In this document: piece after piece, positions 4,607 to 29,436 of the stretch
Layout of the letters: every line of letters begins with the position of its first letter
How positions within the stretch are numbered: position 1 is the stretch's first letter
Assembly (NCBI GenBank): GCA_029262295.1
Contig: JAJCZR010000068.1
Span: 9,749-73,748, forward strand
DNA length: 64,000 nucleotides
Source of the DNA: Deltaproteobacteria bacterium
Lineage (GTDB): Bacteria; Desulfobacterota_D; UBA1144; Nemesobacterales; Nemesobacteraceae
Direction: 5' to 3'
Made by a program: the position numbers and the translations under genes
Notes under the pieces: model-generated
Database searches by the model: none
What the model was told of the DNA's origin: nothing
Seen by the model: the letters and a program-made list of their open reading frames with translations, nothing else

Positions 4607-5128
4607 ATGAAAAATATAAAACTGACTTTTATAATACTGATTGGGCTATTGCTTGTTTCATTTTTATTAAACTTTGCATTTAATTCTGCCGTGCATTCAA
4701 GTGATAGTAATAGCAAAAAACTTCCTGAAGGAGTTCTGGGGCTTACAACTAAAGAGTGGAAAGAAAAACTTACACCACTTGAATATGAAGTTTTATGGAA
4801 AAAAGGAACTGAAAGCCCTTATTCAGGTGATCTTCTTAAGAACAAGAAAGAAGGTGTTTATATATCAGCAGGTTGTAAACAGCCTGTGTTTAGTTCTGAA
4901 CATAAATTTGATTCTAAAACAGGTTGGCCGAGTTTTTGGAAACCAGTATCTGAAGATGCAATAAAACTTGTTCCCGACTATGCTTTTGGTATAAAGCGCA
5001 TGGAAATAGTTTCAAGTAAATGCGGTGAACATCTTGGACATGTATTTAACGATGGTCCGCCTCCAACCGGCTTAAGATACTGTATAAATTCTGCTGCTTT
5101 GGATTTTGTTGAGGAAGAAAATAAGTAG
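4607..5128 (+). CDS. msrB: Peptide methionine-(R)-S-oxide reductase MsrB with N-terminal signal peptide/anchor
   Basis: 173 aa. SelR/MsrB signature GWPSF ... HLGHVFNDGPPPTGLRYCINSAAL. Hydrophobic N-terminus MKNIKLTFIILIGLLLVSFLL suggests export. Confidence 0.85.
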   Translation: MKNIKLTFIILIGLLLVSFLLNFAFNSAVHSSDSNSKKLPEGVLGLTTKEWKEKLTPLEYEVLWKKGTESPYSGDLLKNKKEGVYISAGCKQPVFSSEHKFDSKTGWPSFWKPVSEDAIKLVPDYAFGIKRMEIVSSKCGEHLGHVFNDGPPPTGLRYCINSAALDFVEEENK

Positions 5129-5136
5129 TATTTGTT

Positions 5137-5262
5137 ATCTAAAATAAACAAAAATCCTTCCCCAGTTTTTGGCATCTTTTTTATATCTATGATATTTCAT
5201 GCGGGTGTCTCTTTGTTCAAGAAACCGCAAAACCTTTTTTTGAGTTGGACTCTTCCTTATTC
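5137..5262. repeat. Degenerate second copy (about 85% identity) of the last ~125 bp of the smr gene (6163-6292), with a frameshift; gene-3'-end remnant
   Basis: Direct comparison: tatctaaaataaacaaaaatccttccccagttttt(g/a)gcatctttttt... is shared by 5137-5262 and 6163-6292. The 6163-6292 copy encodes the Smr C-terminus (...YHRYKKDAKNWGRIFVYFR*). The 5137-5262 copy has a 1-nt deletion and an in-frame stop. Confidence 0.8.
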
Positions 5263-5496
5263 TATTGTAGGTGAAAATTCACAATATTCTGAAACAAGGC
5301 AGTGCTGAATTTATTTCAGCATTTAGTAAATGATTAACCATAATGTTATTCCGTGAAGCTCTTTCTTTGAAGATAAATGTTGAAAAGAAATTTTTCAATA
5401 CAGCCATTATTGATTTAAAGTTGCAATTGATTTATCTTTTCTTTCTATATACTAACAATTAAAAAAAATCATATAATTGTTTTCGGAGATATTTAA

Positions 5497-6111
5497 ATGT
5501 CCAATTTTCCTTCACCTTTTTACAGATGGCGTCCACATCCCTGGCATGGTCTTGATATAGGGCCAGATGCTCCCAGGATTATACATGCTTACATTGAGAT
5601 AACGCCGTTTGACTTTGTTAAGTATGAAGTAGATAAAGTTACCGGTTATCTTCGTGTTGACCGCCCGCAGCGTACATCATCACAACCGCCTACTCTTTAT
5701 GGTTTTATTCCCAGGACTTACTGTGGCAACAATGTTGGAAGCCTTTCACCTAATGCAAATAAGGGTGACAATGATCCGCTTGATATATGCGTTTTTAGTG
5801 AGAGGCCAATTAACCGCTCGGAAGTGATTTTAAATGCTAGAGTTGTTGGCGGACTGCTTGGAGTCGACGGTGGGGATGCAGATGATAAAATCGTTGCAGT
5901 GCTTGAGAATGATAATGTCTGGGGAGATATTAATGATATATCCGAGCTTCCTGAAGTTTTAGTAGAACGTTTAAGACATTATTTTAGTACCTACAAGCTA
6001 GTACCCGGCGAGGAGCCTCGCATGGTTGTAGAAGATTTTTACGGACGTGAACACGCGATGAAAGTTGTAGAGGCTGCAATTAGGGATTACGATGAAGTTT
6101 ATGGAGAGTAA
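5497..6111 (+). CDS. ppa: Inorganic pyrophosphatase (family I) with an internal insertion
   Basis: 204 aa. [39 protein letters not shown] and KIVAV match the soluble PPase active-site region. Confidence 0.8.
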
Positions 6112-6158
6112 TCTCTTTACCTTATATATTTTCTGAAAAGCGAAATATAATTTTTTAA

Positions 6159-6410
6159 TTATCTAAAATAAACAAAAATCCTTCCCCAGTTTTTAGCATC
6201 TTTTTTGTATCTATGATATTTTTTGCGGGTTTCTTTTTGCTCAAGAAATCGTAAAACCCTTTTTTTAAGCTGGCCGCTTCCCTTTCCACATATTATTTCA
6301 AGTTCATCTATTTTATTCTCTGATGCTTCATTTACATAGTTGCTAAGTTCTTTTTCGATAAGATTTCCTTTGTTGTAGATAGGGTGAAGGTCTAGTTTTA
6401 TCTTGCTCAT
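6159..6410 (-). CDS. Smr (small MutS-related) domain protein
   Basis: 83 aa. LDLHPIYN...LEIICGKGSGQLKKRV matches the Smr domain LDLHG...IIHGKG.G.L pattern. Confidence 0.65.
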   Translation of the reverse strand: MSKIKLDLHPIYNKGNLIEKELSNYVNEASENKIDELEIICGKGSGQLKKRVLRFLEQKETRKKYHRYKKDAKNWGRIFVYFR

Positions 6411-6455: not shown

Positions 6456-8165
6456 TTACCAGCTTCCACCACCGCCGCCGCCAAAGCCTCCTCCGCTAAA
6501 TCCCCCACCACTAAAACCTCCTGCACTTATTCCCCTGCTGCCTGCTGCATTTTTGGGTGAGGAGTAAAGGCTTTTGTTCATAATACTTATGCTTCTACCT
6601 AAATCATTGATAAAGATATGAGAATTAAAACTGGTCCCATAACTGGAAGAGTAATACCAGTCTGGTGGTTCCAAATAGAGTTCATCAAATGCATTTGCCC
6701 ATTTTTCTTCAAGTCCGAATACAAGTGCATATGGAAGAATTCTATCGAACACTTTGGGATCCTCTTTGGAGAGCCGTTTTATCCTGTCTGTCTCCGCTCT
6801 TTCTATAAACTCTCTGAAACCTCTTAAATGATTGTTAGTAATTGAACCTTTTCTTGTTTTCCTTGGCATATATCTAGAAAATATTATAAAAAGTATTCCA
6901 CATATTGCTCCTACTATTTTGTATTGAAAAAATGGTAAAAACGTTAAGCTTAAAATTAATGCTCCAATTCCAAAAAATTTAAAAACTTTTCTTATGTTTT
7001 CCGGACTTGAAGGAAAATACTTAGCTTCTACTAATTGATCGTAAAGAGATTCCTCTATTCCGGGGAGATGCGTGTAAAAGGTGTTTTTAAGTTTTGAAAC
7101 AAAAGTTTCGTTTTTGTTTCCAGAAAATAAACCATTGAGTATTTTTATCTCATGCCACTTTAGCTCTGAACCATCTCCGTCTTTAATCTTGATTAGTTTA
7201 TAATCTTTATCTGAGAGAAATAGAAACTTTGTTGTAGTAATCTCTTCAATTTTCAAAAATCCTCTTACTGCAAGATCTACAACTGTGGAAGTTATATCTA
7301 TCATATCGGCTCTTTCATCAAAAAGAGTGCCTGCCTCTGCTGGTGTGAGATCTGCAGGTGGCTCATATCTCACGGCCACCGTATCCCCGTGATATGGATC
7401 TTTTCCTTCTTTTTTCCAGAACCCATAGAGAAATGCAAATACAACAAGTGGTATTGAATAGATTGAATTTTGTTTCAGAAATCTAAAGGCTTTTGATATA
7501 AAAGAAGGCTCTTTAATAAATCCTTTTGGAAGGGCAATATCTATAGTGAGCCTAGCTCCCCTCAATAGCCTTTCTTGTGTGATGAAATTTATTATTTCTT
7601 CATCTTTAACTATCTCACAATTTTGATTTTTTGATCCAGTTTCTCCAGTAAAACACTGCGTTTTTGTTTCTTCAGGTACAGCACTATCTAAATAAACTTT
7701 TGCCCTGCTCTTGAGTATTGGAATATTCCACCAATCATTTCCTGTGGCGTTCCAATAAAACTCATCATAATTTTCTAAAAAAAGGATGGCGTTTTCAGCG
7801 CTGTATTCAATAACGTATGTGTTTATCCCCGTAATTGTTTTTTTAGGATCTCCGATCTTTATATGGATTTTGCCATTTTCTCTTTTTACTTTGTATTTGT
7901 AGGAATTCCCATTTTCATCTCTCACATCCAGAATGTTTATTCTTAGATTGTAGTTGTTAATTCCTTTCTTGTATTTATATGGAATTTCCCTGAAGATGCC
8001 GTGACGATATGTGTTTTTAAAATCATATTTAATATCTTCTTCTACCCTTATCCAGCCGGATTTATCAAGAAAAATATCAACATTGAATCTTTTAATTTCA
8101 TCGCTGGCAAAAGCAAAGGAATTTTGTAAGAAAATAAGTAGAAGCAGTAAAAGGAGCTTTTTCAT
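6456..8165 (-). CDS. DUF2207-type membrane protein (signal peptide, large extracytoplasmic domain, TM helices, C-terminal Gly-rich tail)
   Basis: 569 aa. Signal MKKLLLLLLLIFLQNSFAFA, internal hydrophobic helices, C-terminal GGFSGGGFSGGGFGGGGGGSW tail. Immediately downstream of lemA, the classic LemA/DUF2207 pairing. Confidence 0.6.
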   Translation of the reverse strand: MKKLLLLLLLIFLQNSFAFASDEIKRFNVDIFLDKSGWIRVEEDIKYDFKNTYRHGIFREIPYKYKKGINNYNLRINILDVRDENGNSYKYKVKRENGKIHIKIGDPKKTITGINTYVIEYSAENAILFLENYDEFYWNATGNDWWNIPILKSRAKVYLDSAVPEETKTQCFTGETGSKNQNCEIVKDEEIINFITQERLLRGARLTIDIALPKGFIKEPSFISKAFRFLKQNSIYSIPLVVFAFLYGFWKKEGKDPYHGDTVAVRYEPPADLTPAEAGTLFDERADMIDITSTVVDLAVRGFLKIEEITTTKFLFLSDKDYKLIKIKDGDGSELKWHEIKILNGLFSGNKNETFVSKLKNTFYTHLPGIEESLYDQLVEAKYFPSSPENIRKVFKFFGIGALILSLTFLPFFQYKIVGAICGILFIIFSRYMPRKTRKGSITNNHLRGFREFIERAETDRIKRLSKEDPKVFDRILPYALVFGLEEKWANAFDELYLEPPDWYYSSSYGTSFNSHIFINDLGRSISIMNKSLYSSPKNAAGSRGISAGGFSGGGFSGGGFGGGGGGSW

Positions 8166-8180
8166 CTGAGGCTCCTAATT

Positions 8181-8735
8181 CTAATTAAAGCTAACCTGAG
8201 GAGCTGCCGATTCTTCAGGTGAGTCGAGCTCAAAATACTCTTTTTTGGAAAAACCAAACTTATTTGCAACAATATTACTCGGCACAGTTTCTATCTTTGT
8301 ATTGAGGTCTCTCACAACGGCGTTGTAATACCTTCTTGCCATCTGAATTTTATCTTCAATGTCTGAAAGATCATTTTGAAGATCAAGAAAGTTCTGGTTG
8401 GCTTTAAGGTCAGGATAACTTTCAGACAGAGCAAAAAGGCTTTTAAGGGCAGATTGCAAAAAGTTTTCAGTTTGTGCTTGTTCTTCCGGCCCGCTTGCCC
8501 CCATTGCAGAATTTCTTGCCTGTACTACTTTTTCAAAAGTTTCTTTTTCATGAGAGGCATAACCTTTAACGGTTTCCACAAGGTTGGGAATAAGATCGTA
8601 TCTTCTTTTGAGTTGCACATCCACATCCGACCACGCCTGCTCCGATCTATTTCTAAGGCTCACAAGTCCGTTGTAAATCGCAACAAGGAAAAGTGCTATA
8701 GCAACTATTACACCTAAAACAATTAGTGCTGACAT
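8181..8735 (-). CDS. lemA: LemA family protein
   Basis: 184 aa. N-terminal TM followed by YNGLVSLRNRSEQAWSDVDVQLKRRYDLIPNLVETVKGYASHEKETFEKVVQARN, the conserved LemA core. Confidence 0.85.
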   Translation of the reverse strand: MSALIVLGVIVAIALFLVAIYNGLVSLRNRSEQAWSDVDVQLKRRYDLIPNLVETVKGYASHEKETFEKVVQARNSAMGASGPEEQAQTENFLQSALKSLFALSESYPDLKANQNFLDLQNDLSDIEDKIQMARRYYNAVVRDLNTKIETVPSNIVANKFGFSKKEYFELDSPEESAAPQVSFN

Positions 8736-13507: not shown

Positions 13508-14293
13508 ATGATAAGAAGAGATATAGATGGGGGTTGGATACTTATTACCCAGGACGACCATGCAGTCCTTTCTTTTGATATTATGAAAAACTGGGGAAAT
13601 AGTAGGTTCGAGGAAATTATTCCAAATGAGCAGGTTTTAACTGCAATTAAAGAACATGATTGCGGTTGGAAAAAATGGGATAGCAGTTCCGTATTAAATA
13701 AGCAGAATAACTACCCTACCAATTTTATCGAGATGTACACTAACGATCAATATGTAATATGGAAAAACTCTTATGAAAGTCTGAGAGATGATTCAAGTTA
13801 CGCAGCATCACTTGTAGCTCTTCACTTCTCAAAGTTTAATAATAATACTCTTACTAAAAACCCTGATAATCGGACTGCAAAAATATTGAGGGATAAAATA
13901 AATAAATTTGTTCAAAGGAATCTTAAATTAAACTCAGATAATAAAGATAAAAATGGGTTTCTTCCAATTGATGTTAGGATAAATCTCAGGTTTTTGCAAA
14001 TAGGTGATATTGTTTCTCTTGCACTTTGCCATGGTTGGAGTTCAACTGAGATTGAAAATGTGCCGCTAAACTATCATGATGATAATGTGATTTTAAAACT
14101 GAGTTCGCAGGATGGTTTAAACTATGAAATAGACCCAAATCCTTTTCCTGAGAATAATCTAGAATTTAAAGTTAAAGGAAAAAAGCTTCTGAAAAAAGAG
14201 TTTAAGTCACAAGATGAGCTAGACATGGCTTTCAGTGATGCAACAGAACAAATTCTTTCGTTTTCAATTTGCAGCTGCCAGGAGGAAAGATAA
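13508..14293 (+). CDS. Hypothetical protein embedded in the glc operon (possibly DUF3891-like; assignment uncertain)
   Basis: 261 aa ORF tightly packed between glcE (7-nt gap) and glcF (0-nt gap). No recognisable catalytic motif. C-terminal CSC. Confidence 0.5.
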   Translation: MIRRDIDGGWILITQDDHAVLSFDIMKNWGNSRFEEIIPNEQVLTAIKEHDCGWKKWDSSSVLNKQNNYPTNFIEMYTNDQYVIWKNSYESLRDDSSYAASLVALHFSKFNNNTLTKNPDNRTAKILRDKINKFVQRNLKLNSDNKDKNGFLPIDVRINLRFLQIGDIVSLALCHGWSSTEIENVPLNYHDDNVILKLSSQDGLNYEIDPNPFPENNLEFKVKGKKLLKKEFKSQDELDMAFSDATEQILSFSICSCQEER

Positions 14294-15589
14294 ATACCTA
14301 CTTTTAAAGCTTTTGATGAAATAGATAAACCGGATAAAAAAATAATTGATGATTGCGTTCACTGCGGGTTTTGTCTGTCTGCATGTCCGACTTATCTTCA
14401 GACAGGAAATGAACTTGATTCCCCAAGGGGAAGAATTTATTTAATTAAGTCTGCAGCAGCCGGTGAAATAGATATGGACCTCTCACTTGTTAATCATCTT
14501 GATTTGTGCCTTGGTTGCCTTGCTTGTGAGACAGCATGTCCATCAGGGGTTAAATACGGAAGCCTTATTGAGACTGCAAGGGCACAGATAGAAAGAAGAT
14601 ATGAGAGGGGATGGTTCGATAAGGCTTTTAAATCTTTACTGTTTAGTTTGTTTCCTTACGCATCAAGACTAAAATTGATGCTACCCTTTTTCTACCTGTT
14701 AAATCTTTTGAAACTGAAAAGCGTAATAAAACCTGAGTTTTTATACAGAATAAATCCAAAGCTGGGAGCACTTTTTGATGTTCTTCCCGAAGTTAGCACC
14801 CCATTTGTAGAAAAACTTGGGGAATTAATTCCATCAAAGACAGAGAAAAAGTACAGGGTTGCAATGCTTACCGGATGTGTTCAAAGTGCGTTTTTTTCAA
14901 AAACTAACCAGGCGACTGTTAATGTATTAACAAGTAATGGGTGCGAAGTTGTAATCCCTAAAGGACAGGGTTGTTGTGGCGCACTTTCAATTCACTCAGG
15001 AAGGCTTAGTGAAGGTAAAGAGTTTGCAAGAAAGTTGATTGATACATTCACAAAACTTGATGTGGATGCAATTGTTGTTAACTCTGCAGGTTGCGGCTCA
15101 TCAATGAAAGAGTATGGATATATTTTTAAAAATGACCCAGCTTACAAAATAAAAGCAGAAAAGTTATCTCAAAAAACTAAAGATATAATGGAGTTTCTCT
15201 CAGAAATAGGGATTGAAAGTGAACTGCAACCTCTCGATTTAAAAATTACTTATCAGGATGCTTGTCATATTATTCATGGACAAAGAATAAAAAATGAGCC
15301 GCGTGAGATCCTCGAAAAAATTCCAGAACTTAAACTTATAGAAATGAAAAACTCTGATAGATGCTGCGGGAGCGCTGGAATTTATAATATTACCCAGCCG
15401 GATATGTCTCAAAAAATCCTGCATGAGAAAGTGGAAAATATAGAACAAACAGGTTCAGATTATCTTGTTGCCGGTAACCCGGGGTGTCTTTTGCAGATTA
15501 AAAAGGGTTTTACTAAAAACCAAAAAAGCATAAAAACTGCACATCCAGTTGAAATTCTCAACTGGTCAATCAAAGGCAAAATAAGCTAA
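14294..15589 (+). CDS. glcF: Glycolate oxidase iron-sulfur subunit GlcF; start codon non-canonical (AUA at 14294?) or the gene is disrupted
   Basis: The first 4Fe-4S motif CVHCGFCLSACPTY (14354-14395) and ELDSPRGRIYLIK lie upstream of the first ATG (14474). The second cluster CLGCLACETACPSG and the CCG domains follow. The frame is open back to the TAA of the upstream ORF. AGGAGG at 14280-14285 lies 8 nt before ATA at 14294. Confidence 0.75.
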   Translation: MPTFKAFDEIDKPDKKIIDDCVHCGFCLSACPTYLQTGNELDSPRGRIYLIKSAAAGEIDMDLSLVNHLDLCLGCLACETACPSGVKYGSLIETARAQIERRYERGWFDKAFKSLLFSLFPYASRLKLMLPFFYLLNLLKLKSVIKPEFLYRINPKLGALFDVLPEVSTPFVEKLGELIPSKTEKKYRVAMLTGCVQSAFFSKTNQATVNVLTSNGCEVVIPKGQGCCGALSIHSGRLSEGKEFARKLIDTFTKLDVDAIVVNSAGCGSSMKEYGYIFKNDPAYKIKAEKLSQKTKDIMEFLSEIGIESELQPLDLKITYQDACHIIHGQRIKNEPREILEKIPELKLIEMKNSDRCCGSAGIYNITQPDMSQKILHEKVENIEQTGSDYLVAGNPGCLLQIKKGFTKNQKSIKTAHPVEILNWSIKGKIS

Positions 15590-15593
15590 AGTT

Positions 15594-15620
15594 CCAACCC
15601 TAAATCTGACTTAGGGTTGG
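15594..15620. terminator. Perfect 10-bp inverted repeat (CCAACCCTAA-N7-TTAGGGTTGG) between convergent glcF and the HU gene; candidate bidirectional terminator hairpin
   Basis: Seen directly in the sequence between the glcF stop (15589) and the HU stop (15635). Confidence 0.45.
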
Positions 15621-15634
15621 AAAGTATTACAAAA

Positions 15635-15925
15635 TTAACCTAAAATTGCGTCTTTACAGGCTTTTGCTACTCTGAATTTCACGACTTTTTTAGCTGGAAT
15701 CTGAATTACTTCACCTGTGGCAGGGTTTCTTCCAGTTCTTGCTTTTCTGTCGCTTAAAACTAGTTTACCAATTCCAGGTAATGTGAATTGACCTTTTTTC
15801 TTTGCTTCACCACAAGCAATTTCTGCTATTTCATCGAGCAGATCATTTGCGGCTTTTTTTGTAAGACCTGTTCTTTCAGCAATTTCACCTGAAAGAGCTG
15901 ATTTAGTCATGGGTTTATTATCCAT
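15635..15925 (-). CDS. hup: HU/IHF family nucleoid-associated DNA-binding protein
   Basis: 96 aa. MTKSALSGEIAERTGLTKKAANDLLDEI...FTLPGIGKLVLSDRKARTGRNPATGEVIQIPAKKVVKFRVAKA matches the HU fold and arm. Confidence 0.85.
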   Translation of the reverse strand: MDNKPMTKSALSGEIAERTGLTKKAANDLLDEIAEIACGEAKKKGQFTLPGIGKLVLSDRKARTGRNPATGEVIQIPAKKVVKFRVAKACKDAILG

Positions 15926-16106
15926 TACTCCTCCTATTAATAAAGTAATAAAAAATCTATACTAATGTAAATATTGAGAAAAATCAACTTCAAGCTTTGT
16001 AGGCTTTTTGAAAATGATTTTTAAACTTATCAAATATCGATAAACTATTATCCATATCTATTTTATATTGAATTTTAAACTTTTTCCAGCCAATTGGTGT
16101 AATAGC

Positions 16107-17234
16107 ATGAAATTAACAAAAGACACGAAAAACAAAAAGTGGTTTGTATTCTTTTTAATATTTATTGGATTCATTGTATTTCTCGGATTTTTGTATCTAA
16201 GGCTTTTATCTGTGAGGTCTGAAGCTGCAAAAAGTTTTAACAATGATTCTGCTAAACCTGTAAAAGTAATTCCCCTGGAAAAAACAGAAGGGTGGCTTTA
16301 TAGAGAAGTTTTGGGAAGAGTGGAAGGGAATCAACAGATAGACATTAAAACAAATGTGAGTGGCTGGGTTGAGGGCAAAAATTTAAAAAGAGGAAACCCG
16401 GTTAATAAAGATGAGGTAATACTTACACTTTATGATGACAGGACCGAAGCTTCTCTTACAGAAGCTCAGTTTAATCTTAAATCTGCTAAGGCAAAGCTCA
16501 AAGAAAGCAAAAGAAAATACAATCAGAATAAACTATTGCTCGAAAAGGGTATTGTTTCAAAAGATACTGTGGATGAGAGTGAAAACCTTGTAAGTATTGA
16601 TAACGCTAATGTCAGGTCACTTGAAGCCTCACTTAAAAAGATGCAGTTTGATTTTGATAAACTTAATGTTCGCTCTCCTATTTCAGGACAGGTTGTTGAA
16701 GTGCTTCCGGATGTGGGCCAGGAGGTAATAGAAGGAGAGGTTGTTGCTAAAGTTGTAAATCTTTCGTCTATTCATATTATTGTCGGTGTTGATGCCTCTC
16801 TCGCAAGATCTATAGATACGAACTCGCCAGTCGAACTTACGCTCAAGCTTAATGGTGATATTGAAAAAACCACTGGTAGGGTAGTGGGCGTGAGTAAGGA
16901 TTTTGCTGCTAACTCAGGGATATATGAAGTTGAAATAAAGATTGATGATAAAGATGTAAATTGGTGGCCAGGTGAGATTGTGTCTGTAAAAATACCTACA
17001 AAGAAGTTTCGTGATGTTGTAAGAATTCCAAGATCTGCAGTGTTGTCAGATAGCAGCGAGATATTTATTTTTGTAGTGAATGAAGGACTTTCTTTAAAAG
17101 TACCAATAAATGTAACCTGGATTGATGATAAATATGGTTTTACTAATGCAGATAATATTCCACTTAACTCACAAATAATTACCGAAGGTGCTTCCGGGCT
17201 TACATCCGGCCAGCAGGTAAAAATTCTCAATTAA
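16107..17234 (+). CDS. RND efflux periplasmic adaptor (membrane fusion protein, HlyD family)
   Basis: N-terminal TM, coiled-coil (EASLTEAQFNLKSAKAKLKESKRKYNQNKLLLEKGIVSKDTVDE), lipoyl/beta-barrel motifs (VRSPISGQVVEV). Directly upstream of the RND pump. The ATG at 16107 is preferred over 16068. Confidence 0.8.
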   Translation: MKLTKDTKNKKWFVFFLIFIGFIVFLGFLYLRLLSVRSEAAKSFNNDSAKPVKVIPLEKTEGWLYREVLGRVEGNQQIDIKTNVSGWVEGKNLKRGNPVNKDEVILTLYDDRTEASLTEAQFNLKSAKAKLKESKRKYNQNKLLLEKGIVSKDTVDESENLVSIDNANVRSLEASLKKMQFDFDKLNVRSPISGQVVEVLPDVGQEVIEGEVVAKVVNLSSIHIIVGVDASLARSIDTNSPVELTLKLNGDIEKTTGRVVGVSKDFAANSGIYEVEIKIDDKDVNWWPGEIVSVKIPTKKFRDVVRIPRSAVLSDSSEIFIFVVNEGLSLKVPINVTWIDDKYGFTNADNIPLNSQIITEGASGLTSGQQVKILN

Positions 17235-17240
17235 TAGCTA

Positions 17241-20200
17241 ATGCATATTGCTGATTTTTCTGTAAAAAATTCAGTCCTTGTAAACCTTCTAATGGGAGCA
17301 ATTCTTGTTATTGGGTTTGTTTTTGCGCTTGTGCTTCCACTTGAACTCTTCCCCTCAATTAATCTTGAAATTGTAACTGTTAAAACAGTGTTCCCGGGTG
17401 CATCTGCTGAAGATATAGAGCAGCTAATTACTATCCCGATTGAAGAAGAGATAAAGAACATCTCGGGAATAAAGGTTCTAAAATCAACTTCTTCCGAAGG
17501 CTTATCCTCGGTGACAGCTGAGCTGTATACAGGTGAGGATATAAAAAAGATATCCCAGGATATTGATTCAAATATTTCAAGAATAAAAGATAAACTTCCG
17601 GGTGATTCTGAAGAACCTATTGTTGAAGAAGTTGATGCCAATTTCCCTTTAATAAACGTGGCTATTTCAGGTGATGTTCCCCGAGCAGTTCTTCGAGATA
17701 ATGCCCTTCGCCTTGAAGATGAACTTCTACTTGTAAGCGGCGTTGACAATATTATTCCATCCGGGCTTGAAGAACCTGTATTTTGGGTCTATCTCGATTA
17801 TGCAAAGATGCGCCAGTTTGGTCTTAATGTGGATCAGGTCTCTTCTGCAATCAGTCAGAAAAACCTTGATCTTCCAGGCGGAGGTTTTAAACAGGGCGAT
17901 GTAGAATTGATAGTGAGAACTAAAGGAAAAGTAAAATCTATTGAAGATCTTTTAGATATTCCCGTAAATAGTGATCAGATGGGGAGGCAGGCTTTTTTAA
18001 GGGATATTGCCACGATAGAGCTTGGAGAAGAAAAGGCCTCTTCTTTATCAAGGGTAAACGGACTTTCTGCTATAACTTTCTGGGTAAACAAGCAAAAAAA
18101 TGTTGATGCAATTGATACAGTAAAGAAGATTGAAGAACTGACAAAAGAGTTTGAAAAAACGCTTCCGGATTCAATAGAGATTTATCTTACAAACGACGAA
18201 TCCTACTGGGTAAAAAAACGTTTTGAGACAATGCTAAAAAGCGGTGCTGCAGGGTTGATACTGGTGCTTATCTTCCTTGGACTTTTTCTAAATAAAAAGG
18301 CTGCACTTATTGCCGCTCTTGGTATACCGGTTTCCTTTTTGGGCGCTTTTATTCTTATGCAGTTAAATGGGGTCACAATAAATCTTCTCTCGATGTTCGG
18401 GCTTATTATGGTGCTTGGGATTGTTGTGGATGACTCAATTATAGTTGTAGAAAATGTGGAAAGATATATAGCTCAGGGTATGAAGCCGAGAGCTGCAGCT
18501 ATAAAAGGCACAAAGGAAGTTGCACTGCCTGTTTTGGCAACAGTGCTTACAAATATTGCGGCATTTATACCTCTTTTATTTGCAACTGGTCTTGTGGGTG
18601 AATTTTTATCTATAATTCCCACTGTAGCCATCTTTGCACTTCTTTTTTCTCTTGTAGAGGCTCTTCTAATAATGCCTGCTCATTGTGCTGAATGGCTTAG
18701 CCCGAGAAAGGCAATTAAGAAAAGGTATACCTGGTTTCATAAAATCAGATCTTATTACTTAAAGGGTTTGGTTTTTGTACTTGGAAACAGATATGTAGTT
18801 GTTCCTTGTTTCTTTATAATTTTTTTCATCACCATATATATTTTCTCGCAAATTCCAAATGTAATGTTTTATCAGCATGACACTTCTGAGCTTCGAATAA
18901 GGGTTGAAAATCCTGCACAATCTAATCTTGAGTATACGGCTTCATCTGTTAAGCAGGTTGAAGACATTATAAAAAAGAATGTGCCTGAGCATGTGCTTAA
19001 AAATATAGTATCTCTTGTGGGACTCGATCTTACAGGCCAGGCAACTGCTACAGGTGATCATCTTGCAACAATCATTGTCCAGTATGAAGATTTTGAAAAA
19101 AGAAAAGAAAATGCAATTGAGCTTAGTAATCTTGCCCGTGATGATACGCTTGCCAATGTAGCCGGTCCAAAGCAGGTGGATTACATAATTGAGGCAGGGC
19201 TTCCCACAGGTAAGCCGGTTGAAGTGAGAATTCAGGGGAAAAATCTTAATGTTCTAAAAGAAATATCTTATAAGACCCAGGAGTATTTAGAAAAGCAAAA
19301 AGGTGTTTCAGGAATAAGCGATGATCTTCTCTGGGGAAAACCGGAAGTGCGGGTGGAAGTTGATCCCAGAAAAGCTGCAATTTTTGGTCTCGATACAACA
19401 AAAATAGCGCAGGAAGTGAGGACACTTGTGGATGGGCTTACAGTTGCACAGACTCGTATTGGAAAAGAAGAAGCTGATATTAATCTTAAGTACCGCACTG
19501 GTGATGTAAATTTTGTTTCTCTTTTAGAATCTCATCAGATGCAAACTTCTTCAAATGGTCTGGTTTCCCTTGGTGCAGTTGCAAATATTGTGAATGCACC
19601 CAGCATTCTCGATATAAAAAGATATGATTCACAAAGAGCTGCGACTGTAAAAGCTGAAGTTGACCAGAAAATTACAACTTCTGTGGAAGTAAATAAAAAG
19701 TTAAAAGAGTATTTAAACGAATTGATAAAAAGCTATAGTGGATACAGTTTTAATTTTGGTGGTGAAGCAGAGGAATATAAGCAGACAATTGGAGATATTA
19801 TGAGAGCTGCCCTTGCTGCAATTATTCTTATATATTTAATTCTTGCCAGTATTTTAAGATCATATTTTCAGCCTTTTATCATTATGAGCATATTGCCTTT
19901 TACACTTATCGGTGTAATTACAGGAATATTAATTAGAGGCGAACCAATAACTCTTCCGGCAATTATTGGGACAGTGGCCCTTCTTGGAATTGTGGTGAAT
20001 GACAGCCTTGTTTTAATGGATTTTATAAATAAACGTGTAAAAACAATGAGAAGCAAAGTAATGGCAGTGGCTTTTTCAGCCAAACACCGCTTCAGACCAA
20101 TTATTCTTACCACTCTAACGACTTTTGGAGGCCTCTCTTCGCTTATGTTTGTTTACAGAGGTGAATCATCGTTTCTTGCTCCAATGGCCATCTCACTCGG

Positions 20201-20327
20201 CTTTGGGCTTCTATTTGCCACAGTGATTCTTTTATATTTAATCCCAGCCCTTTATTTGATATTGGATGATATAATTGGGTTTGTAAAAAGAAAGATTGGA
20301 AAATATAGAGTTCAATTTACGTCTTGA
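17241..20327 (+). CDS. RND family efflux transporter permease (AcrB/CzcA superfamily)
   Basis: 1028 aa, 12-TM architecture with two large periplasmic loops. Typical motifs (GIVVDDSIIVVENVERY; GIVVNDSLVLMDFIN). Confidence 0.85.
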   Translation: MHIADFSVKNSVLVNLLMGAILVIGFVFALVLPLELFPSINLEIVTVKTVFPGASAEDIEQLITIPIEEEIKNISGIKVLKSTSSEGLSSVTAELYTGEDIKKISQDIDSNISRIKDKLPGDSEEPIVEEVDANFPLINVAISGDVPRAVLRDNALRLEDELLLVSGVDNIIPSGLEEPVFWVYLDYAKMRQFGLNVDQVSSAISQKNLDLPGGGFKQGDVELIVRTKGKVKSIEDLLDIPVNSDQMGRQAFLRDIATIELGEEKASSLSRVNGLSAITFWVNKQKNVDAIDTVKKIEELTKEFEKTLPDSIEIYLTNDESYWVKKRFETMLKSGAAGLILVLIFLGLFLNKKAALIAALGIPVSFLGAFILMQLNGVTINLLSMFGLIMVLGIVVDDSIIVVENVERYIAQGMKPRAAAIKGTKEVALPVLATVLTNIAAFIPLLFATGLVGEFLSIIPTVAIFALLFSLVEALLIMPAHCAEWLSPRKAIKKRYTWFHKIRSYYLKGLVFVLGNRYVVVPCFFIIFFITIYIFSQIPNVMFYQHDTSELRIRVENPAQSNLEYTASSVKQVEDIIKKNVPEHVLKNIVSLVGLDLTGQATATGDHLATIIVQYEDFEKRKENAIELSNLARDDTLANVAGPKQVDYIIEAGLPTGKPVEVRIQGKNLNVLKEISYKTQEYLEKQKGVSGISDDLLWGKPEVRVEVDPRKAAIFGLDTTKIAQEVRTLVDGLTVAQTRIGKEEADINLKYRTGDVNFVSLLESHQMQTSSNGLVSLGAVANIVNAPSILDIKRYDSQRAATVKAEVDQKITTSVEVNKKLKEYLNELIKSYSGYSFNFGGEAEEYKQTIGDIMRAALAAIILIYLILASILRSYFQPFIIMSILPFTLIGVITGILIRGEPITLPAIIGTVALLGIVVNDSLVLMDFINKRVKTMRSKVMAVAFSAKHRFRPIILTTLTTFGGLSSLMFVYRGESSFLAPMAISLGFGLLFATVILLYLIPALYLILDDIIGFVKRKIGKYRVQFTS

Positions 20328-20348
20328 AATAAGCATAAAATAAAAAAT

Positions 20349-20834
20349 TTGATATTTGTTATTTTGTTATATTTTTTATTTTTTAATGAATGTGTAGCTA
20401 ATAACAGTTCTGATTTGGAGTCTATAGAAAATAACCCCAAAATTATTAATGATATTCCAAGTGACATGTATTGGTTTTCATTTTTTATGGGTTTACTAAA
20501 AGATGTAAAAGAGAATGAGAAGTTTGTATATGGAAAAGTTTTCGCTTACCATGGGTATGCTGATTTCAAGATTAACAAAAATGATATAGATAATTTGGAA
20601 TCTAAAACACAAGGTGCAATACGTACTATAAAACACAATATCTCCATTATTAAATACTCATCTGATTATAGTCAACAAAAAAAAAGTGCAATACAAAGAC
20701 TATATGAAATAACTGGAAGTAACTTTGATTCTTATGAAAAGTGGGACGATTGGTTCATTAATAATCAGAAAAATCTAGTCTGGTCAAATAAGCTTGATCA
20801 ATTGGTAATAAAAATAGTAATGAATAAATTGTAA
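20349..20834 (+). CDS. Hypothetical secreted protein in a very AT-rich segment
   Basis: 161 aa ORF with a hydrophobic N-terminus. No recognisable domain. Local composition is much more AT-rich than the flanking genes. Confidence 0.35.
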   Translation: MIFVILLYFLFFNECVANNSSDLESIENNPKIINDIPSDMYWFSFFMGLLKDVKENEKFVYGKVFAYHGYADFKINKNDIDNLESKTQGAIRTIKHNISIIKYSSDYSQQKKSAIQRLYEITGSNFDSYEKWDDWFINNQKNLVWSNKLDQLVIKIVMNKL

Positions 20835-20914
20835 ATTATATATTTTGTCTTTGTACCTTTAAAGCTTACTCAGATTCTCACACCTCTATCTGTTTGTTTC
20901 AACAACTATTTCAA

Positions 20915-20953
20915 TTGACAATAAACTTATCTGTATTACATTTGTATTACATA
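20915..20953 (+). promoter_or_regulatory. Candidate promoter (TTGACA-N16-TACATT) with tandem TGTATTACAT direct repeats (likely antitoxin operator) upstream of the RHH/PIN pair
   Basis: TTGACA at 20915-20920. TGTATTACAT at 20933-20942 and again at 20944-20953, just upstream of the GGGAG SD and the ATG at 20969. Confidence 0.4.
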
Positions 20954-20968
20954 TCTGGGAGTTTAAAA

Positions 20969-21229
20969 ATGAGTACTAAAACTGTGCGTTTAGATAATGA
21001 AACTGAAGAGGCTTTGAGAGAAATTAGAAAGCAAACAGGGCTTTCCATATCTGAAGTTCTCAAAGAGGGAATTCTTGTACTTAAAAAAGAAGTTGATGAT
21101 AAGAATAGGCAAAGCCCCTTTGATGTTTATAAAAGCCTCGATTTAGGTGAAGGTGGTTATTCCATAGCACCATCAACAGATACTCGAAAGGGAGTAAGGG
21201 CTGCAATTAAAAAGAAGTTAAATAAATGA
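20969..21229 (+). CDS. Ribbon-helix-helix (CopG/VapB-like) antitoxin
   Basis: About 87 aa from the ATG at 20969. MSTKTVRLDNETEEALREIRKQTGLSISEVLKEGI is a typical RHH N-terminus. Overlaps the downstream PIN gene by 4 nt (ATGA). Confidence 0.7.
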   Translation: MSTKTVRLDNETEEALREIRKQTGLSISEVLKEGILVLKKEVDDKNRQSPFDVYKSLDLGEGGYSIAPSTDTRKGVRAAIKKKLNK

Positions 21230-21639
21230 TCCTTGTAGATACGGGCCCACTCATTGCTCTTTTTGATCCAAAAGACAAAATGCATGAAAGTTGCAAAGAA
21301 ATACTCAAAACTATTGAAGAAAAAATTTGCACTACCATCCCTGTCCTCACTGAAGCTTTTCATATACTAACTCCGGAAAGCATAAGTTCAGACAGATTAA
21401 AAGATTTTATAGTAAAAGGCGGATTATCAATCCTCTTTATGGATGAGAAAGTAATAGAAAGATGCTTTGAATTAATGGAAAAGTATAAAGATCATCCAAT
21501 GGACCTTGCTGATGCTTCATTAATAGCTTCAGCCGAAAAGCTAGAAACCAGAAAAATATTTACAATAGATAGAAATGATTTTGAAACATATCGAATACAA
21601 AAGGGGCATAAATATCTTTCGCCAGAGATTCTAAGTTAA
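21226..21639 (+). CDS. vapC: PIN-domain toxin VapC
   Basis: 137 aa. MILVDTGPLIALF (Asp5), TEAF, DLADAS and TIDRNDF supply the PIN acidic residues. Confidence 0.8.
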   Translation: MILVDTGPLIALFDPKDKMHESCKEILKTIEEKICTTIPVLTEAFHILTPESISSDRLKDFIVKGGLSILFMDEKVIERCFELMEKYKDHPMDLADASLIASAEKLETRKIFTIDRNDFETYRIQKGHKYLSPEILS

Positions 21640-21695
21640 AACTTGCTCCAACTCTCGCAGCCTTTTCTTATTATCTCCACTCTTATGTTCTACCT
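21636..21695. repeat. Degenerate copy (about 85% identity, ~60 bp) of the 3' end of the cysteine desulfurase gene whose intact copy is at 22412-22471
   Basis: aaaacttgctccaactctcgcagccttttcttattatctccac versus aaaacttactcaaactctcgcagctttccctgattatttccac. Reverse translation of the remnant gives VEIIRKGCESWSKF*, compared with the genuine C-terminus VEIIRESCESLSKF*. Confidence 0.75.
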
Positions 21696-22364
21696 TTTAA
21701 AACTGAATTTTACAGCACCTCGTTCGGGATCATTTTCAGTATCGTATTCAAATTCAAGATTTACATTCAATATATCAGCCGGAATTCTTTTAAAGTATAT
21801 AAAACCTTTTACAGTTGAGCCGGGATAAACCACACCGGGGAAAAGTGCTTCAGAATAAACTTCACTCACATTTTCAGCCTGTCCGTACGCTTGAGGATAA
21901 TCGTAGGGATATGGATCATCATAATAGTAATGAAAACGACTTCTGAAAGGACTGTGGTATCGATGATGACTTCTGTAATAACCGCCATGATAATGGCCAA
22001 CGCCAATTCCAATTGAAATTCGTGGGAAAAATCTTGGGCGTGAACTCTCTTTCACAATCTCAGCAGCAATATTGGGGCTTAAAAGATTGTATTGATTATT
22101 TAATTCGTCGATCAGCACAATATCATTGGAATTGAAAGTAATCTCGTTTTTCGATTGATTCTCAATCTCTACATAAAAGGTTGTAAGGTATTTAGAAACC
22201 TTGTAATCACCAATCCCTGAAGATGGAGTGACTTTTATTTCCACACCTTCATCAGTCTTAAATTTCTGAAACGGTATAAACGGGGCTGCTGTTTTCTGCT
22301 TGTATGCACAACCTGAGATCGCAAATATTAAAATTAGGACTATTGGAAATACTTTTTTTGTCAT
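21690..22364 (-). CDS. Lipoprotein with DUF4352-like beta domain and His/Tyr-rich C-terminal region
   Basis: Lipobox MTKKVFPIVLILIFAISGC. C-terminal GVGHYHGGYYRSHHRYHSPFRSRFHYYYDDPYPYDYP. Confidence 0.6.
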   Translation of the reverse strand: MTKKVFPIVLILIFAISGCAYKQKTAAPFIPFQKFKTDEGVEIKVTPSSGIGDYKVSKYLTTFYVEIENQSKNEITFNSNDIVLIDELNNQYNLLSPNIAAEIVKESSRPRFFPRISIGIGVGHYHGGYYRSHHRYHSPFRSRFHYYYDDPYPYDYPQAYGQAENVSEVYSEALFPGVVYPGSTVKGFIYFKRIPADILNVNLEFEYDTENDPERGAVKFSFKR

Positions 22365-22413
22365 ACAAAATATTATAATGACAAAGTGCTTGAACTGTAC
22401 TTTTTTTGCAACT

Positions 22414-23580
22414 TTAAAACTTACTCAAACTCTCGCAGCTTTCCCTGATTATTTCCACCGCTCTGTTAACTTCTTCAAAAGTGTTTTCAGGGCTGAAGCT
22501 GAATCTGATGCTTGAATATGCTTCTTTTTCACTTAATCCCATTGCCATTAAGACGTATGAAGGAGTGCTGTCAAAATTAGTGCAGGCTGAGCTTTGAGAG
22601 CACCTGATTCCTCTTTTATCAAGGAGTTGAAGAAGTCTTCTCCCATCAAGATCATCAAATTTGATATTGGTTGTATTACATATTCTGTTTTTTGGACATC
22701 CGTTTACTTTTGTGCCTGGGATAAAATCAAGAAGCATTGCTTCAAATCGGTCGCGAATCTCTTTCATCTTCATTTTTAGCTTTCTAAGGTTTTCATGCCT
22801 GATCTCGGAGGCTTTTCCGATACCAACAATTCCGGGGAGGTTCTCTGTGCCGGGCCTAAAGCCTTCTTCCTGAAAACCACCAAATAAAATTGGGTTTACA
22901 AGAAACCTGTCTTTTGCATAAAGCACTCCACAACCTTGGGGAGCATTGTATTTATGTCCTGTGAAAGAAAGAAAATCGACTGATAGTTTATCAATATCAA
23001 TCTCCATTTTGCCTACAGCCTGAGCTGCATCAGTGTGGAAAATTACACCTTTTTCCATACAGAGTTTTGATATCGATTCTAAATCCTGAATAACTCCTGT
23101 TTCGTTATTTACCCACTGTACAGAAACTAAATCCACTTTTTTTTGATCCAATATCTTTTCAAGATCATCTATAATCACAAAACCGTTTTCATCTACACCA
23201 AGCATTTCCACTTCGACATTGTTTATCTTGAGATAGCTGCACATTTTTAATATAGAAGAATGTTCAACCATTGTTGTGACAACTTTTTTAGAGCCATTTC
23301 CATTTTTTGTGCAGGAATAAAAAGCCATATTGTTGGATTCAGTGCCCGAGCTAGTAAAAATAATGTGATCTGGACAACAGCCAATGAGGCTTCCTGTGCA
23401 CTCTCGAGACTTTTTAAGATGTTCTCTTGCCCTTTCTCCACCTGAGTGGGCACTTGATGGGTTTCCAAATTCTTTGCTTAATACTTTTATAACTGCTTCG
23501 CGCACTTCTTTCGAAGGCATGGTTGTGGCATTATTATCAAAATAGATTTCTGCAGAACTTTGTTTACACCCCATACTCAT
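22414..23580 (-). CDS. Cysteine desulfurase, NifS/IscS family (class V aminotransferase)
   Basis: 388 aa. PLP-lysine motif SFTGHKYNAPQGCGVLYAK. Active-site Cys loop SSACTNFDSTPSYVLMAMG. Confidence 0.85.
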   Translation of the reverse strand: MSMGCKQSSAEIYFDNNATTMPSKEVREAVIKVLSKEFGNPSSAHSGGERAREHLKKSRECTGSLIGCCPDHIIFTSSGTESNNMAFYSCTKNGNGSKKVVTTMVEHSSILKMCSYLKINNVEVEMLGVDENGFVIIDDLEKILDQKKVDLVSVQWVNNETGVIQDLESISKLCMEKGVIFHTDAAQAVGKMEIDIDKLSVDFLSFTGHKYNAPQGCGVLYAKDRFLVNPILFGGFQEEGFRPGTENLPGIVGIGKASEIRHENLRKLKMKMKEIRDRFEAMLLDFIPGTKVNGCPKNRICNTTNIKFDDLDGRRLLQLLDKRGIRCSQSSACTNFDSTPSYVLMAMGLSEKEAYSSIRFSFSPENTFEEVNRAVEIIRESCESLSKF

Positions 23581-23628
23581 GAGTATAATCGATAATTGCA
23601 GACAGTAGCAATTAGAAAAAATAGCGTT

Positions 23629-24012
23629 TTATTCATACAAATCAGCCGGAGTAAAAAGTGTGATGCATGGATTTTTATTTTCTTTGCTTACAGGGCCAAT
23701 AAAAGATGAAACCTCTGTGTTTTCACTCTTTCCATCTTTGGTAAATGATGCATTAAAATTTATAATGTTTGTTTTCTTGGTTTGCCTACTGAGTCTAATT
23801 GCCATTACGAGCTGAGATAGTATCTCTTTTGTCCTTCCATTTTCGTTCTCCCCCATTTTTACTGCTTCCTCATCAGGTTGGATAATCCCGTTCCATATAC
23901 TTGATGTTAAAAATACGGGCATAAGAAGCCCGGAATTTTTTGCCTGTTCTGAAATATCAATTTGATTTTCATTCTCCAGATCTTCACTTCTATTAATGTA
24001 AAAATTCTCCAT
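23629..24012 (-). CDS. Hypothetical protein
   Basis: 127 aa ORF. No recognisable motif. Confidence 0.35.
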   Translation of the reverse strand: MENFYINRSEDLENENQIDISEQAKNSGLLMPVFLTSSIWNGIIQPDEEAVKMGENENGRTKEILSQLVMAIRLSRQTKKTNIINFNASFTKDGKSENTEVSSFIGPVSKENKNPCITLFTPADLYE

Positions 24013-24138
24013 TGTCTAATCTCCAGAAATGTATTAGATTCCATTATGATCGAAAAGAATCTATTTGCAAAAATTTAGCTTATATATTGTAAGTGATATA
24101 ATTAGTTTTGGCAGGAACATTTTGGTGATGAGGTCTAT

Positions 24139-24693
24139 TTGAGAAAAATTTCTTTATTTTTGCTTATAACTTTTCTATTTTTACCCTACAACTCCTTTTC
24201 AATGAGTGACGAAGAGATCAACTACAGGTATAGCATTGCTTCAACCACAAGCGATCTTCTTGCAATCCGAAGAATATTTGGCGAAATCCTTCAATCAGGT
24301 GATCTTGATTACAGTTTCCAGGCCGCAAGAGATGTTATTTCCACACTTGATAAAATAGGAAAAGATCTTGATGATCTGGTTGTTCCCGGGAAAATGGAAG
24401 ATCCCTATAATGTGTTTTTGGAATCCGTAAAATCCTATAGAAAAAGTGCTACATGCATCAGAAATTCTGCTGAGATAATGCTTGGCTATTTTGATGGAAC
24501 AGAAGAAGATGCAGCTAGTCTTATGAAAAGAAGCACTGATTATGTGGAGCTTGCAAATAAATATTTTGATCTTAGCTTTGATCTTCACTCCGAGGTTTTT
24601 GATAAAGAAAAAAAAGAAGGTTTTCCAAAAGACTTTTTTAAAGAAAAAGATATTGAAAATCCAGAAAAAGATTCAGAAAAACTCTCTATTTAG
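24139..24693 (+). CDS. Hypothetical secreted protein
   Basis: 184 aa with signal peptide MRKISLFLLITFLFLPYNSFS. Acidic C-terminus. Confidence 0.4.
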   Translation: MRKISLFLLITFLFLPYNSFSMSDEEINYRYSIASTTSDLLAIRRIFGEILQSGDLDYSFQAARDVISTLDKIGKDLDDLVVPGKMEDPYNVFLESVKSYRKSATCIRNSAEIMLGYFDGTEEDAASLMKRSTDYVELANKYFDLSFDLHSEVFDKEKKEGFPKDFFKEKDIENPEKDSEKLSI

Positions 24694-24704
24694 CACCCAA
24701 ATTA

Positions 24705-25484
24705 ATGAGTAGAAAAGTAAAACAACTAGAGTTAATTCCAGTGTATGGAATTCCTGAGCTTAAGCCGAAAGATAACCTTGCACAAATAATAGTGTCTTCA
24801 ATAAAAAATGAAGATATTGAGATTAAAAATAAAGATATTTTAGTAATTGCTCAAAAAATTGTCTCAAAAGCCGAAAACAGAATTGTAGACTTAAAGAAGA
24901 TCAAACCTTCCAAATTTGCAAAAAAATTGTCTGAAGAAATATCAAAAGATCCCCGTCTTTTGGAAGTTATTCTTGGTGAGACAACAAAAATAATTAAAAT
25001 GGATGAAAGGGTAAGTGGCAAAGGAAGGTTGATTGTGGAAACTATTGGAGGACTTATATCTGCAAATGCTGGGGTGGACGCTTCAAATGTTTCAGGAGGG
25101 GATCATGTAACTCTTCTACCTCTTGATTCTGACAAGTCTGCCAAGGAGATAAGAAAAGGGCTGAAGTCAGCCACGAAAAAAAATGTGGCTGTAATAATCA
25201 GTGATACAGTGGGCAGGCCGTGGAGAAATGGTTTAGTGGATATAGCAATAGGCTGCGCCGGGATAAACCCACTCAGGGACCAAAGGGGTGAGCTTGATTC
25301 AAAGGGGCTTCAGCTTGTTGCCACAGAAATGGCCACTGCCGATCAGGTTGCCTGTGCAGCGGGGCTACTAATGGAAAAATCAGAAGGGATTCCGGTTGTA
25401 ATTGTAAGAGGCTGTAATTATTTATCTGGAAATAAGGGTTCTGGAAATCTTATAAGAGATCCTAAAGAAGATTTATTTAGATGA
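24705..25484 (+). CDS. CofE-like protein (F420-0:gamma-glutamyl ligase family fold)
   Basis: 259 aa. LISANAGVDASNVSGGDHVTLLPLDSDKSAKEIR ... VAVIISDTVGRPWRNGLVDIAIGCAGINPLRDQRGELDSKG ... ATADQVACAAGLLMEKSEGIPVVIVRG matches the conserved CofE core. Confidence 0.7.
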   Translation: MSRKVKQLELIPVYGIPELKPKDNLAQIIVSSIKNEDIEIKNKDILVIAQKIVSKAENRIVDLKKIKPSKFAKKLSEEISKDPRLLEVILGETTKIIKMDERVSGKGRLIVETIGGLISANAGVDASNVSGGDHVTLLPLDSDKSAKEIRKGLKSATKKNVAVIISDTVGRPWRNGLVDIAIGCAGINPLRDQRGELDSKGLQLVATEMATADQVACAAGLLMEKSEGIPVVIVRGCNYLSGNKGSGNLIRDPKEDLFR

Positions 25485-25491
25485 TAATTTT

Positions 25492-26349: not shown

Positions 26350-26390
26350 TTTTTACCATTCTACTATCTTGCTAATACATTTCAATCAGA

Positions 26391-28246: not shown

Positions 28247-28259
28247 TTTGGAAAAAACC

Positions 28260-29405: not shown

Positions 29406-29436
29406 TTTTATTGTTTAACTTGTCTTGTCAATAATT

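Follow-up and report, generated by a model that had tools for sequence, protein, structure and literature searches.

A Campbell-type single crossover, which is RecA-dependent, inserts circular DNA so that direct repeats of exactly the homologous segment, with sharp borders, are left around it. Integration hotspots usually hold accessory genes. The prophage e14 and phage 21 integrate into icd of Escherichia coli and leave icdC, a C-terminal pseudogene fragment (Hill et al., 1989, via PMC13626634). e14, a prophage of 15 kb, encodes its own integrase and excises on SOS induction (PMC13626634). [quoted passage not shown]

The locus analysed here is a new instance of an already known type of feature. 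It lies in a 64 kb stretch of DNA, referred to as the window throughout, and has the 3′ end of the gene for a small nuclease with an Smr domain (smr) on both sides of a segment that carries the pyrophosphatase gene ppa.

The repeat and the segment between its copies

The genes smr and msrB are convergent, and the ppa segment of ≈0.9 kb lies between them. The features of the locus are the following (positions in the window):

4607–5128, + strand: msrB (SelR domain, Pfam), the final gene of a conserved ALDH-TPP-msrB block; homology with relatives stops at ≈5119–5123.
5135–5258, − strand: copy A, a dead smr 3′ fragment consisting of the last 41 codons and the stop, 6 nt from the msrB stop codon.
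5135–5170 = 6159–6194, unstranded: 36-nt identical block at the stop-codon end of the repeat, at which the Logan de Bruijn contig breaks.
5259–5409, unstranded: segment of 150 nt that separates copy A from the upstream region of ppa, with a hairpin at 5301–5323.
5410–5496, + strand: ppa upstream region, conserved with the ppa loci of relatives (L032 from 5410, L035 from 5427).
5497–6111, + strand: ppa, an intact family I inorganic pyrophosphatase of 204 aa (Pfam Pyrophosphatase).
6112–6158, unstranded: ppa-smr spacer, 47 nt from stop to stop; homology with the ppa locus of L029 stops at 6130.
6159–6283, − strand: copy B, the 3′ end of the intact smr, i.e., its last 41 codons and the stop.
6159–6410, − strand: smr, coding for a stand-alone Smr-domain protein of 83 aa (Pfam Smr, E = 2.6e-14).
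6456–8735, − strand: genes for DUF2207 and LemA, which form the conserved block next to smr; the homology of relatives stops at 6158.

The DUF2207 gene itself occupies 6456–8165 on the − strand and is supported by Pfam. Between the repeats, ppa is the only ORF with a family match, in agreement with the original prediction that the cargo contains no recombinase. An exact-protein look-up of the Smr of the window returned no record. The hairpin at 5301–5323 has a ΔG of −10.6 kcal/mol (z −2.2), and the 150 nt at 5259–5409 had no match in any locus retrieved for comparison. No leftover homology to the 5′ half of smr was seen in 5259–5496.

The direct repeat of ≈125 bp that had been predicted is real, with its coordinates shifted to 5135–5258 (copy A) and 6159–6283 (copy B) and a start-to-start spacing of 1024. 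The two copies are 88.7% identical over 124 aligned bases with one 1-nt gap, and they differ at 14 positions in addition to this indel. The identity is 91% over the ungapped first 107 nt and 82% over the last 28 nt, past the 1-nt deletion, which sits in copy A within an A7G3 run. The 36-nt identical block encodes the most conserved C-terminal residues of Smr and may have arisen by chance; 36 unchanged bases in a row would be seen by chance with a probability of roughly 1–7% (a rough estimate, made after the fact). When the window was searched against itself, two copies only were found (27- and 33-nt probes, ≤3 mismatches; 0 expected from 100 shuffles), and tblastn of Smr against the window matched nothing but the smr gene and the copy A fragment. 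No similarity above chance was detected past either repeat end, in the outer or the inner flanks (Smith-Waterman against shuffles), and both repeat borders are therefore sharp. The inner border coincides with GKGSGQLKKRVLRFL, where conservation in the Smr family is highest.

Copy B is the genuine 3′ end of smr, as had been proposed, since it is part of the intact 83-aa ORF with the Smr match at E = 2.6e-14. Copy A has neither the 5′ half of the gene nor a start codon. Its minus strand reads ...VLRFLEQRDTRMKYHRYKKDAKNWGRIFVYFR followed by a stop, and then the frame is lost, as had been predicted. Copy A furthermore shows S→R and G→V changes in the GKGSGQ motif, in which the G is invariant and the S nearly invariant in the Smr family. 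The closest relative of copy A is copy B and vice versa (88.7%); compared with the smr genes of six other lineages, copy A has 77–84% and copy B 78–86% identity. Among the lineages compared, copies A and B alone end in AGA-TAA. Private changes are ≈2–3 times more numerous in copy A than in copy B, the frameshift included. This excess, the frameshift and the changes in the GKGSGQ motif together indicate that copy A is decaying. The dS between copies A and B is ≈0.38, vs. 1.5–2.1 between this lineage and its relatives L029 and L016, which means that the event is not recent.

A metagenome assembler could have produced the same picture by merging two strains or paths via the shared 36-mer. The window is probably from a metagenome-assembled genome, the closest named relatives of its ppa being MAGs, and at the 36-nt block the Logan graph (k = 31) is ambiguous, the alternative path being msrB beside an intact smr plus a circle of 1,024 bp. 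A Logan contig of 1048 bp from an independent assembly (SRR15505517) is, on the other hand, 100% identical to 5141–6188. It independently confirms the path from copy A via unique sequence and ppa to copy B, and ends short of the join between msrB and copy A. The length of this contig equals one repeat period plus 24 nt, which is explained by a break of the k = 31 graph inside the 36-nt exact block and provides no evidence for a circle. Copy A, with its 14 differing positions and the indel, is thus a separate sequence and not a mis-join, and on the independent contig it runs into unique sequence and ppa. A 1-kb circle without a replication gene is implausible as a replicon, and assemblers with k > 36 should settle the 36-nt block from single reads. 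An assembly artefact is very unlikely.

The msrB-smr junction and ppa in relatives

The closest relative is represented by ten Logan contigs (L016–L025), with an Smr that is 95% identical in aa to that of the window. Its flanks are those of the window, LemA-DUF2207-smr at one end and msrB-TPP at the opposite end (aa identities of 83% for DUF2207, 85% for msrB and 93% for TPP; ≈79–80% at the nucleotide level). Homology to the window stops at 6158, 1 nt past the smr stop, and at 5123, 5 nt before the end of msrB. Between the stop codons of smr and msrB these contigs contain an AbiEii/AbiEi pair (Pfam) instead of ppa, and no smr fragment or duplication was found around the AbiE pair. The contig L026 (Smr 88%) has kept DUF2207-smr, with an ORF of 164 aa and an HTH/SocA_Panacea gene after it. 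The contigs L116–L121 (msrB 80%) have kept ALDH-TPP-msrB, followed by a cytochrome P460 gene and another ORF, and have no smr and no ppa. In the more distant L013, L015, L027, and L028, smr is found in other contexts.

Two conserved blocks, ALDH-TPP-msrB and smr-DUF2207-LemA, thus meet in the interval between msrB and smr, and no two of the lineages examined have the same content there. The position of ppa between msrB and smr is lineage-specific. The absence of ppa from this locus in relatives, which the original prediction had put forward as the comparison to make, was thus seen both in L016–L025 with their AbiE pair and in L116, where neither smr nor ppa follows msrB.

The comparison was extended to a further 96 smr loci, of which 80 came from JGI metagenomes and 16 were retrieved by exact look-ups. 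A single smr match was obtained at each locus, with 0 of the 96 showing ppa or another piece of smr; msrB or DUF2207 beside smr was seen only in the syntenic relatives among them. The 80 loci, found by scanning the JGI metagenomes with an Smr alignment, all have ≤76% identity and lack msrB and DUF2207 as well as ppa and any additional smr fragment. The corresponding scan with a DUF2207 alignment gave no matches. Using the DUF2207 neighbor, no close species was found in species-representative genomes, where the matches had ≤38% identity. None of the loci compared came from a related genome with nothing inserted between msrB and smr, so that we can only infer which state is ancestral and in which direction the event ran.

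Some candidate similarities were rejected. The outer flank of copy A showed only AT-rich chance similarity to the native smr-downstream flank of the relatives. A circular permutation was considered from the similarity of 6116–6140 and 5441–5471 to the msrB-downstream spacer of L016; 22 and 122 of 1000 shuffles, respectively, reached the same score, and control intergenic regions scored as high.

The predicted bracketing of ppa by a duplicated gene 3′ end was borne out, and the nearest homologs of this ppa are located in other neighborhoods. A homolog with 94% aa identity lies in an alaS-ppa-sigma factor neighborhood (L029–L031), one with 92% is followed by a 184-aa ORF and DUF3943 (L032–L034, from the same sample series as L116), and one with 89% lies next to a sigma54 activator gene (L035, a Thermodesulfobacteriota MAG according to NCBI). 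The nucleotide homology of these loci to the window covers 5485–6130 (L029–L031), 5410–6104 (L032–L034) and 5427–6104 (L035), from which the conserved unit can be delimited to ppa and ≤87 nt upstream. As 5410–5496 is conserved at the ppa loci of L032 and L035, this region belongs to the ppa unit. None of the genes found next to ppa in the relatives (alaS, sigma factor, DUF3943, sigma54 activator) is present in the window.

The dN/dS of ppa is 0.027 against L029, the closest homolog with retrieved DNA, corresponding to strong purifying selection. The ppa identities (94, 92, and 89%) are in line with those of the neighboring TPP gene (93 and 86%). As their ranking parallels that of vertically inherited neighbor genes, ppa looks native rather than foreign. 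It has the appearance of a housekeeping gene passed on vertically. The postulated donor, with smr and ppa in convergent orientation, was seen at 0 of the 96 smr loci and 0 of 7 ppa loci, among which close relatives are thinly sampled.

Origin of the second smr end

We consider it fairly probable that copy A is the relic of a single, fairly old and lineage-specific recombination that placed ppa between smr and msrB, i.e., a one-off scar anchored on smr homology. The resident copy, the route of the recombination and the source of the ppa segment are what we infer within this reading. The incoming DNA would have contained the 3′ half of a functional smr allele adjoining ppa, together with the upstream region of ppa itself. 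It could have paired with the resident smr while its other end was joined illegitimately, as in the homology-facilitated illegitimate recombination of C-terminal displacement, or a circularized fragment could have entered by a Campbell-type single crossover. Both routes would give one intact smr and one orphaned 3′ end, with direct repeats around the insert, and neither would need a dedicated recombinase. The orphaned end would then decay, by the frameshift and the two radical changes in the region of the catalytic motif.

The arrangement is the one expected after displacement in so far as an intact smr is accompanied by an orphaned 3′ smr fragment in the same orientation beyond the insert. 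The inner border at GKGSGQLKKRVLRFL fits a join that was guided by sequence conservation. In the sense of the Rhs, CDI and T6SS loci the match is incomplete, since the two ends do not differ in type and no partner gene follows downstream. Several observations speak against a scar anchored on smr: no donor genome was found, the 36-nt identical block also resembles the core site of a recombinase, and the 150 nt at 5259–5409 match no source.

The main rival is an in-situ duplication, in which the last 124 nt of smr were copied as ppa moved within the same genome, so that the copies were initially identical and copy A has decayed since. This might have happened by a replication template switch that copied ≈0.9 kb from the ppa locus and returned upstream of the break, or by repair of a long staggered break. 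It would agree well with A and B being sister sequences, with A having more private changes, with the native appearance of ppa, whose identities follow those of TPP, and with the lack of mobile-element genes in the window. The substitutions between the copies point, weakly, in the other direction. In the in-frame part, 7 synonymous vs. 5 non-synonymous codons differ, with a dN/dS of ≈0.15. If copy A had been neutral since an in-situ duplication, 57–69% of the substitutions should be non-synonymous, while 6 of 13–14 are observed. Depending on the mutation model the test of neutrality gives p = 0.04–0.2, and the result is not significant under a realistic transition bias. The argument is built on 13 substitutions, and we take it as a weak hint that copies A and B may have diverged partly as functional alleles, as if one of them came with foreign or ectopic DNA. 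An in-situ duplication would moreover call for a source locus that matches the flanks of the inserted segment, and none was found; the known homology to ppa loci covers only 5410–6130. We regard this rival as rather unlikely.

The original prediction read the duplicated gene end as the hallmark of a site-specific, attL/attR-like insertion. This part was not supported: no recombinase is found in the 64 kb (ORFs ≥ 150 aa), the duplication recurs at 0 of 96 other smr loci, and the insert of the closest relative is not flanked by a duplication. A duplicated gene end also arises by homology-anchored or illegitimate recombination, or by a Campbell-type crossover, for which no dedicated recombinase is needed.

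A remnant of an integrative element at the smr 3′ end was nevertheless weighed. The repeats would then be attL and attR, with the crossover core in the 36-nt identical block; the integrase and everything else but ppa would have been deleted later, unless the 1,024-bp unit is moved in trans. The smr 3′ end is indeed repeated directly around the insert with one copy keeping smr intact, and in relatives the site beside smr is variable and contains genes of the TA type. An integrase would be expected inside the element next to the att site. The Pfam scan of all ORFs ≥ 150 aa in the 64 kb window revealed no integrase, recombinase or transposase domain, neither in the insert nor elsewhere. Repeated use of the site would also be expected, and we found neither a second smr fragment at any of the 96 other loci nor an empty site, and no repeats around the AbiE insert of the relative. 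The cargo, a housekeeping gene, experiences strong purifying selection and its identities follow a vertical-like pattern, viral contigs contain no relative of this ppa or Smr, and no plasmid matches the whole insert. Finally, a crossover at the stop-codon end would make the further 88 nt of smr-like sequence in copy A superfluous. Altogether, such a remnant is distinctly unlikely.

Other kinds of mobile DNA fit no better. Terminal inverted repeats are absent from the ends of the insert, and the duplication has a length of 124 nt, vs. the short 2–15 bp target duplications of transposons, IS elements and MITEs; there are two copies and no transposase. An integron cassette would have an attC-like structure and an integrase; the repeat and its spacers fold no better than shuffles, and there is no integrase.

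Copy A might also have been kept for a function, either as terminator of msrB or as a stretch of the msrB 3′ UTR lying antisense to the mRNA of smr. It lies directly 3′ of msrB on the + strand, and transcription reading through it would yield RNA antisense to that mRNA, with perfect complementarity over 36 nt and 89% over 124 nt, and the 36 nt nearest the stop codon are unchanged. The RNA structure of the repeat is not significant (z = 0.16–0.30 vs. shuffles), and neither a terminator-like site nor an Rfam match was found in it, which argues against a structured recombination or regulatory element. The fragment is also missing from every relative examined, and the 36 unchanged bases are not compelling after the fact, given the chance estimate above. 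We give hardly any credence to a retained function.

More far-reaching readings of the same features are very improbable. In one of them, smr-tail and ppa would form a minimal cassette of 1,024 bp that attaches at the last 36 nt of smr and would be inserted and excised in trans by a recombinase gene product from another part of the genome, so that a core housekeeping gene would travel on a mobile cassette; in the second, the msrB 3′ UTR running through copy A would be a trans-antisense regulator of smr. The four related lineages with their differing ppa neighborhoods would fit a cassette mobilized in trans.

Comparison with known systems

Our best reading is that one ordinary recombination event left its scar at a junction of variable content, rather than that the repeats are a pair of att sites, and there is no sign of an active mobile element. 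The locus illustrates how a core metabolic gene such as ppa can come to occupy a variable place in the chromosome with the neighboring smr left intact. The lineage is uncultured and, judged by the names of homologs, probably related to Thermodesulfobacteriota or Dadabacteria. Dead gene-tail fragments of this kind could be miscalled by annotation pipelines, and short-k assemblies break on such repeats. The importance is otherwise limited and would be greater only if the 36-nt core were a working recombination site, i.e., if this were a mobile housekeeping-gene cassette.

As in e14/icd, an intact gene is found together with a dead duplicated C-terminal fragment past the insert, the direct repeats have few and mostly conservative differences, and recombination between them would give back a single chimeric gene. 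Unlike e14, the insert has a length of 0.9 kb and consists of one housekeeping gene, there is no integrase in 64 kb, and neither recurrence nor phage relatives were found.

The resemblance to C-terminal displacement lies in incoming DNA that would be anchored on the conserved 5′ part of the gene, with the old 3′ end displaced downstream as an orphan, without a dedicated recombinase and with the fragment border at a conserved motif. The Rhs, CDI and T6SS loci differ in having polymorphic toxin tips and cognate immunity genes, and often arrays of orphans, whereas the 3′ ends are here of the same type (89% identical), with one orphan, no immunity gene and ppa as passenger.

The 124-nt repeats with sharp borders around ≈900 nt are also like those of a Campbell integration. 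This route needs a circular intermediate with the 3′ half of smr and ppa, and no such source was found.

The junction as a whole resembles the variable islets with conserved flanks, its content being ppa here, AbiE in L016–L025, a SocA_Panacea-type gene in L026 and P460 with a possible restriction-enzyme gene in L116. It is unlike the usual hotspots in that its occupant here is a core metabolic gene.

Position of smr and conservation of its product

The window is syntenic with L015, a more distant relative, over positions 13508-31622, where the gene order runs from DUF3891 through an RND efflux operon to GAPDH. Both in L015 and in L027, another distant relative, smr directly follows the ACR_tran gene. 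The place that smr takes in L015 is filled differently in the window, and smr is not found there:

20328-22413: a 161-aa ORF, a DUF6290/PIN pair and a 224-aa ORF
20894-21639: the DUF6290/PIN pair, which is VapBC-like

Since the window has other ORFs at the spot used by smr in L015 and L027, gene order indicates that the position of smr shifts between lineages. Judged from the neighboring genes, smr tends to be surrounded by toxin-antitoxin or WYL-type genes. The protein encoded by the gene, a stand-alone Smr of 83 aa (window 6159-6410), showed unusually high conservation when compared across proteins P0001-P0120. Matches at ≈65-71% identity bear the names of Omnitrophica, Anaerolineales, Flavobacteriales and organisms of Firmicutes type, and the close relatives show almost no variation in the DNA that codes for KNWGRIFVYF.

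Occupants beside smr and msrB in other lineages

The stretches next to smr or msrB were also inspected in contigs of the closest syntenic relative (L016-L025), of a lineage with 88% Smr identity (L026) and of the ERR3484xxx lineage (L116):

L016, 386-2451 (also in L017-L025): AbiEii/AbiEi, a type IV toxin-antitoxin pair, between smr and msrB
L026, 1622-4946: DUF2207-smr, then a 164-aa ORF, an HTH + SocA_Panacea gene and a 415-aa ORF
L116, 2797-4494: msrB, separated by a 400-nt gap from a cytochrome P460 gene, which is followed by a partial ORF

Upstream of AbiEi, at 2264-2386 of L016, repeated TGTACA...TGTACA palindromes (repeat families D4 and D7) look like operator sites by their sequence. 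The SocA_Panacea gene of L026 is antitoxin-like and the 415-aa ORF had no match to any family; the stretch downstream of smr in this lineage is one more accessory-type occupant. In the ERR3484xxx lineage, too, the content to the right of msrB varies; the partial ORF after P460 resembles the N-terminus of a type I restriction enzyme only below threshold (HSDR_N, E=0.008).

Small features around the repeat and a second locus

Three small features lie at or between the two repeat copies, copy A next to msrB and copy B at the 3' end of smr:

5301-5323: 9-bp hairpin AGUGCUGAA/UUCAGCAUU, in the 150 nt that separate copy A from the ppa upstream region
5132-5308, plus strand: 58-aa ORF with a TTG start, through copy A in another frame
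6155-6289, minus strand: 44-aa ORF, through copy B in another frame

The hairpin (dG -10.6 kcal/mol, z -2.2; 7 of 200 shuffles folded equally well) may be the msrB terminator or a remnant of the earlier context of the segment. Both short ORFs are without gene support, and annotation pipelines could miscall them. The Logan contig L001 (window 5141-6188) exceeds one repeat period (1024) by exactly 24 nt and could be misread as a 1-kb circular element. Both its ends fall inside the 36-nt block identical in the two copies, and they are a k=31 graph break.

Elsewhere, the window contains a ThyX-type ORF:

47623-49086: 487 aa, with two separate Thy1 domain matches

ThyX is usually about half this length, and the doubled matches and size together suggest internal duplication or fusion of a thymidylate synthase ThyX.
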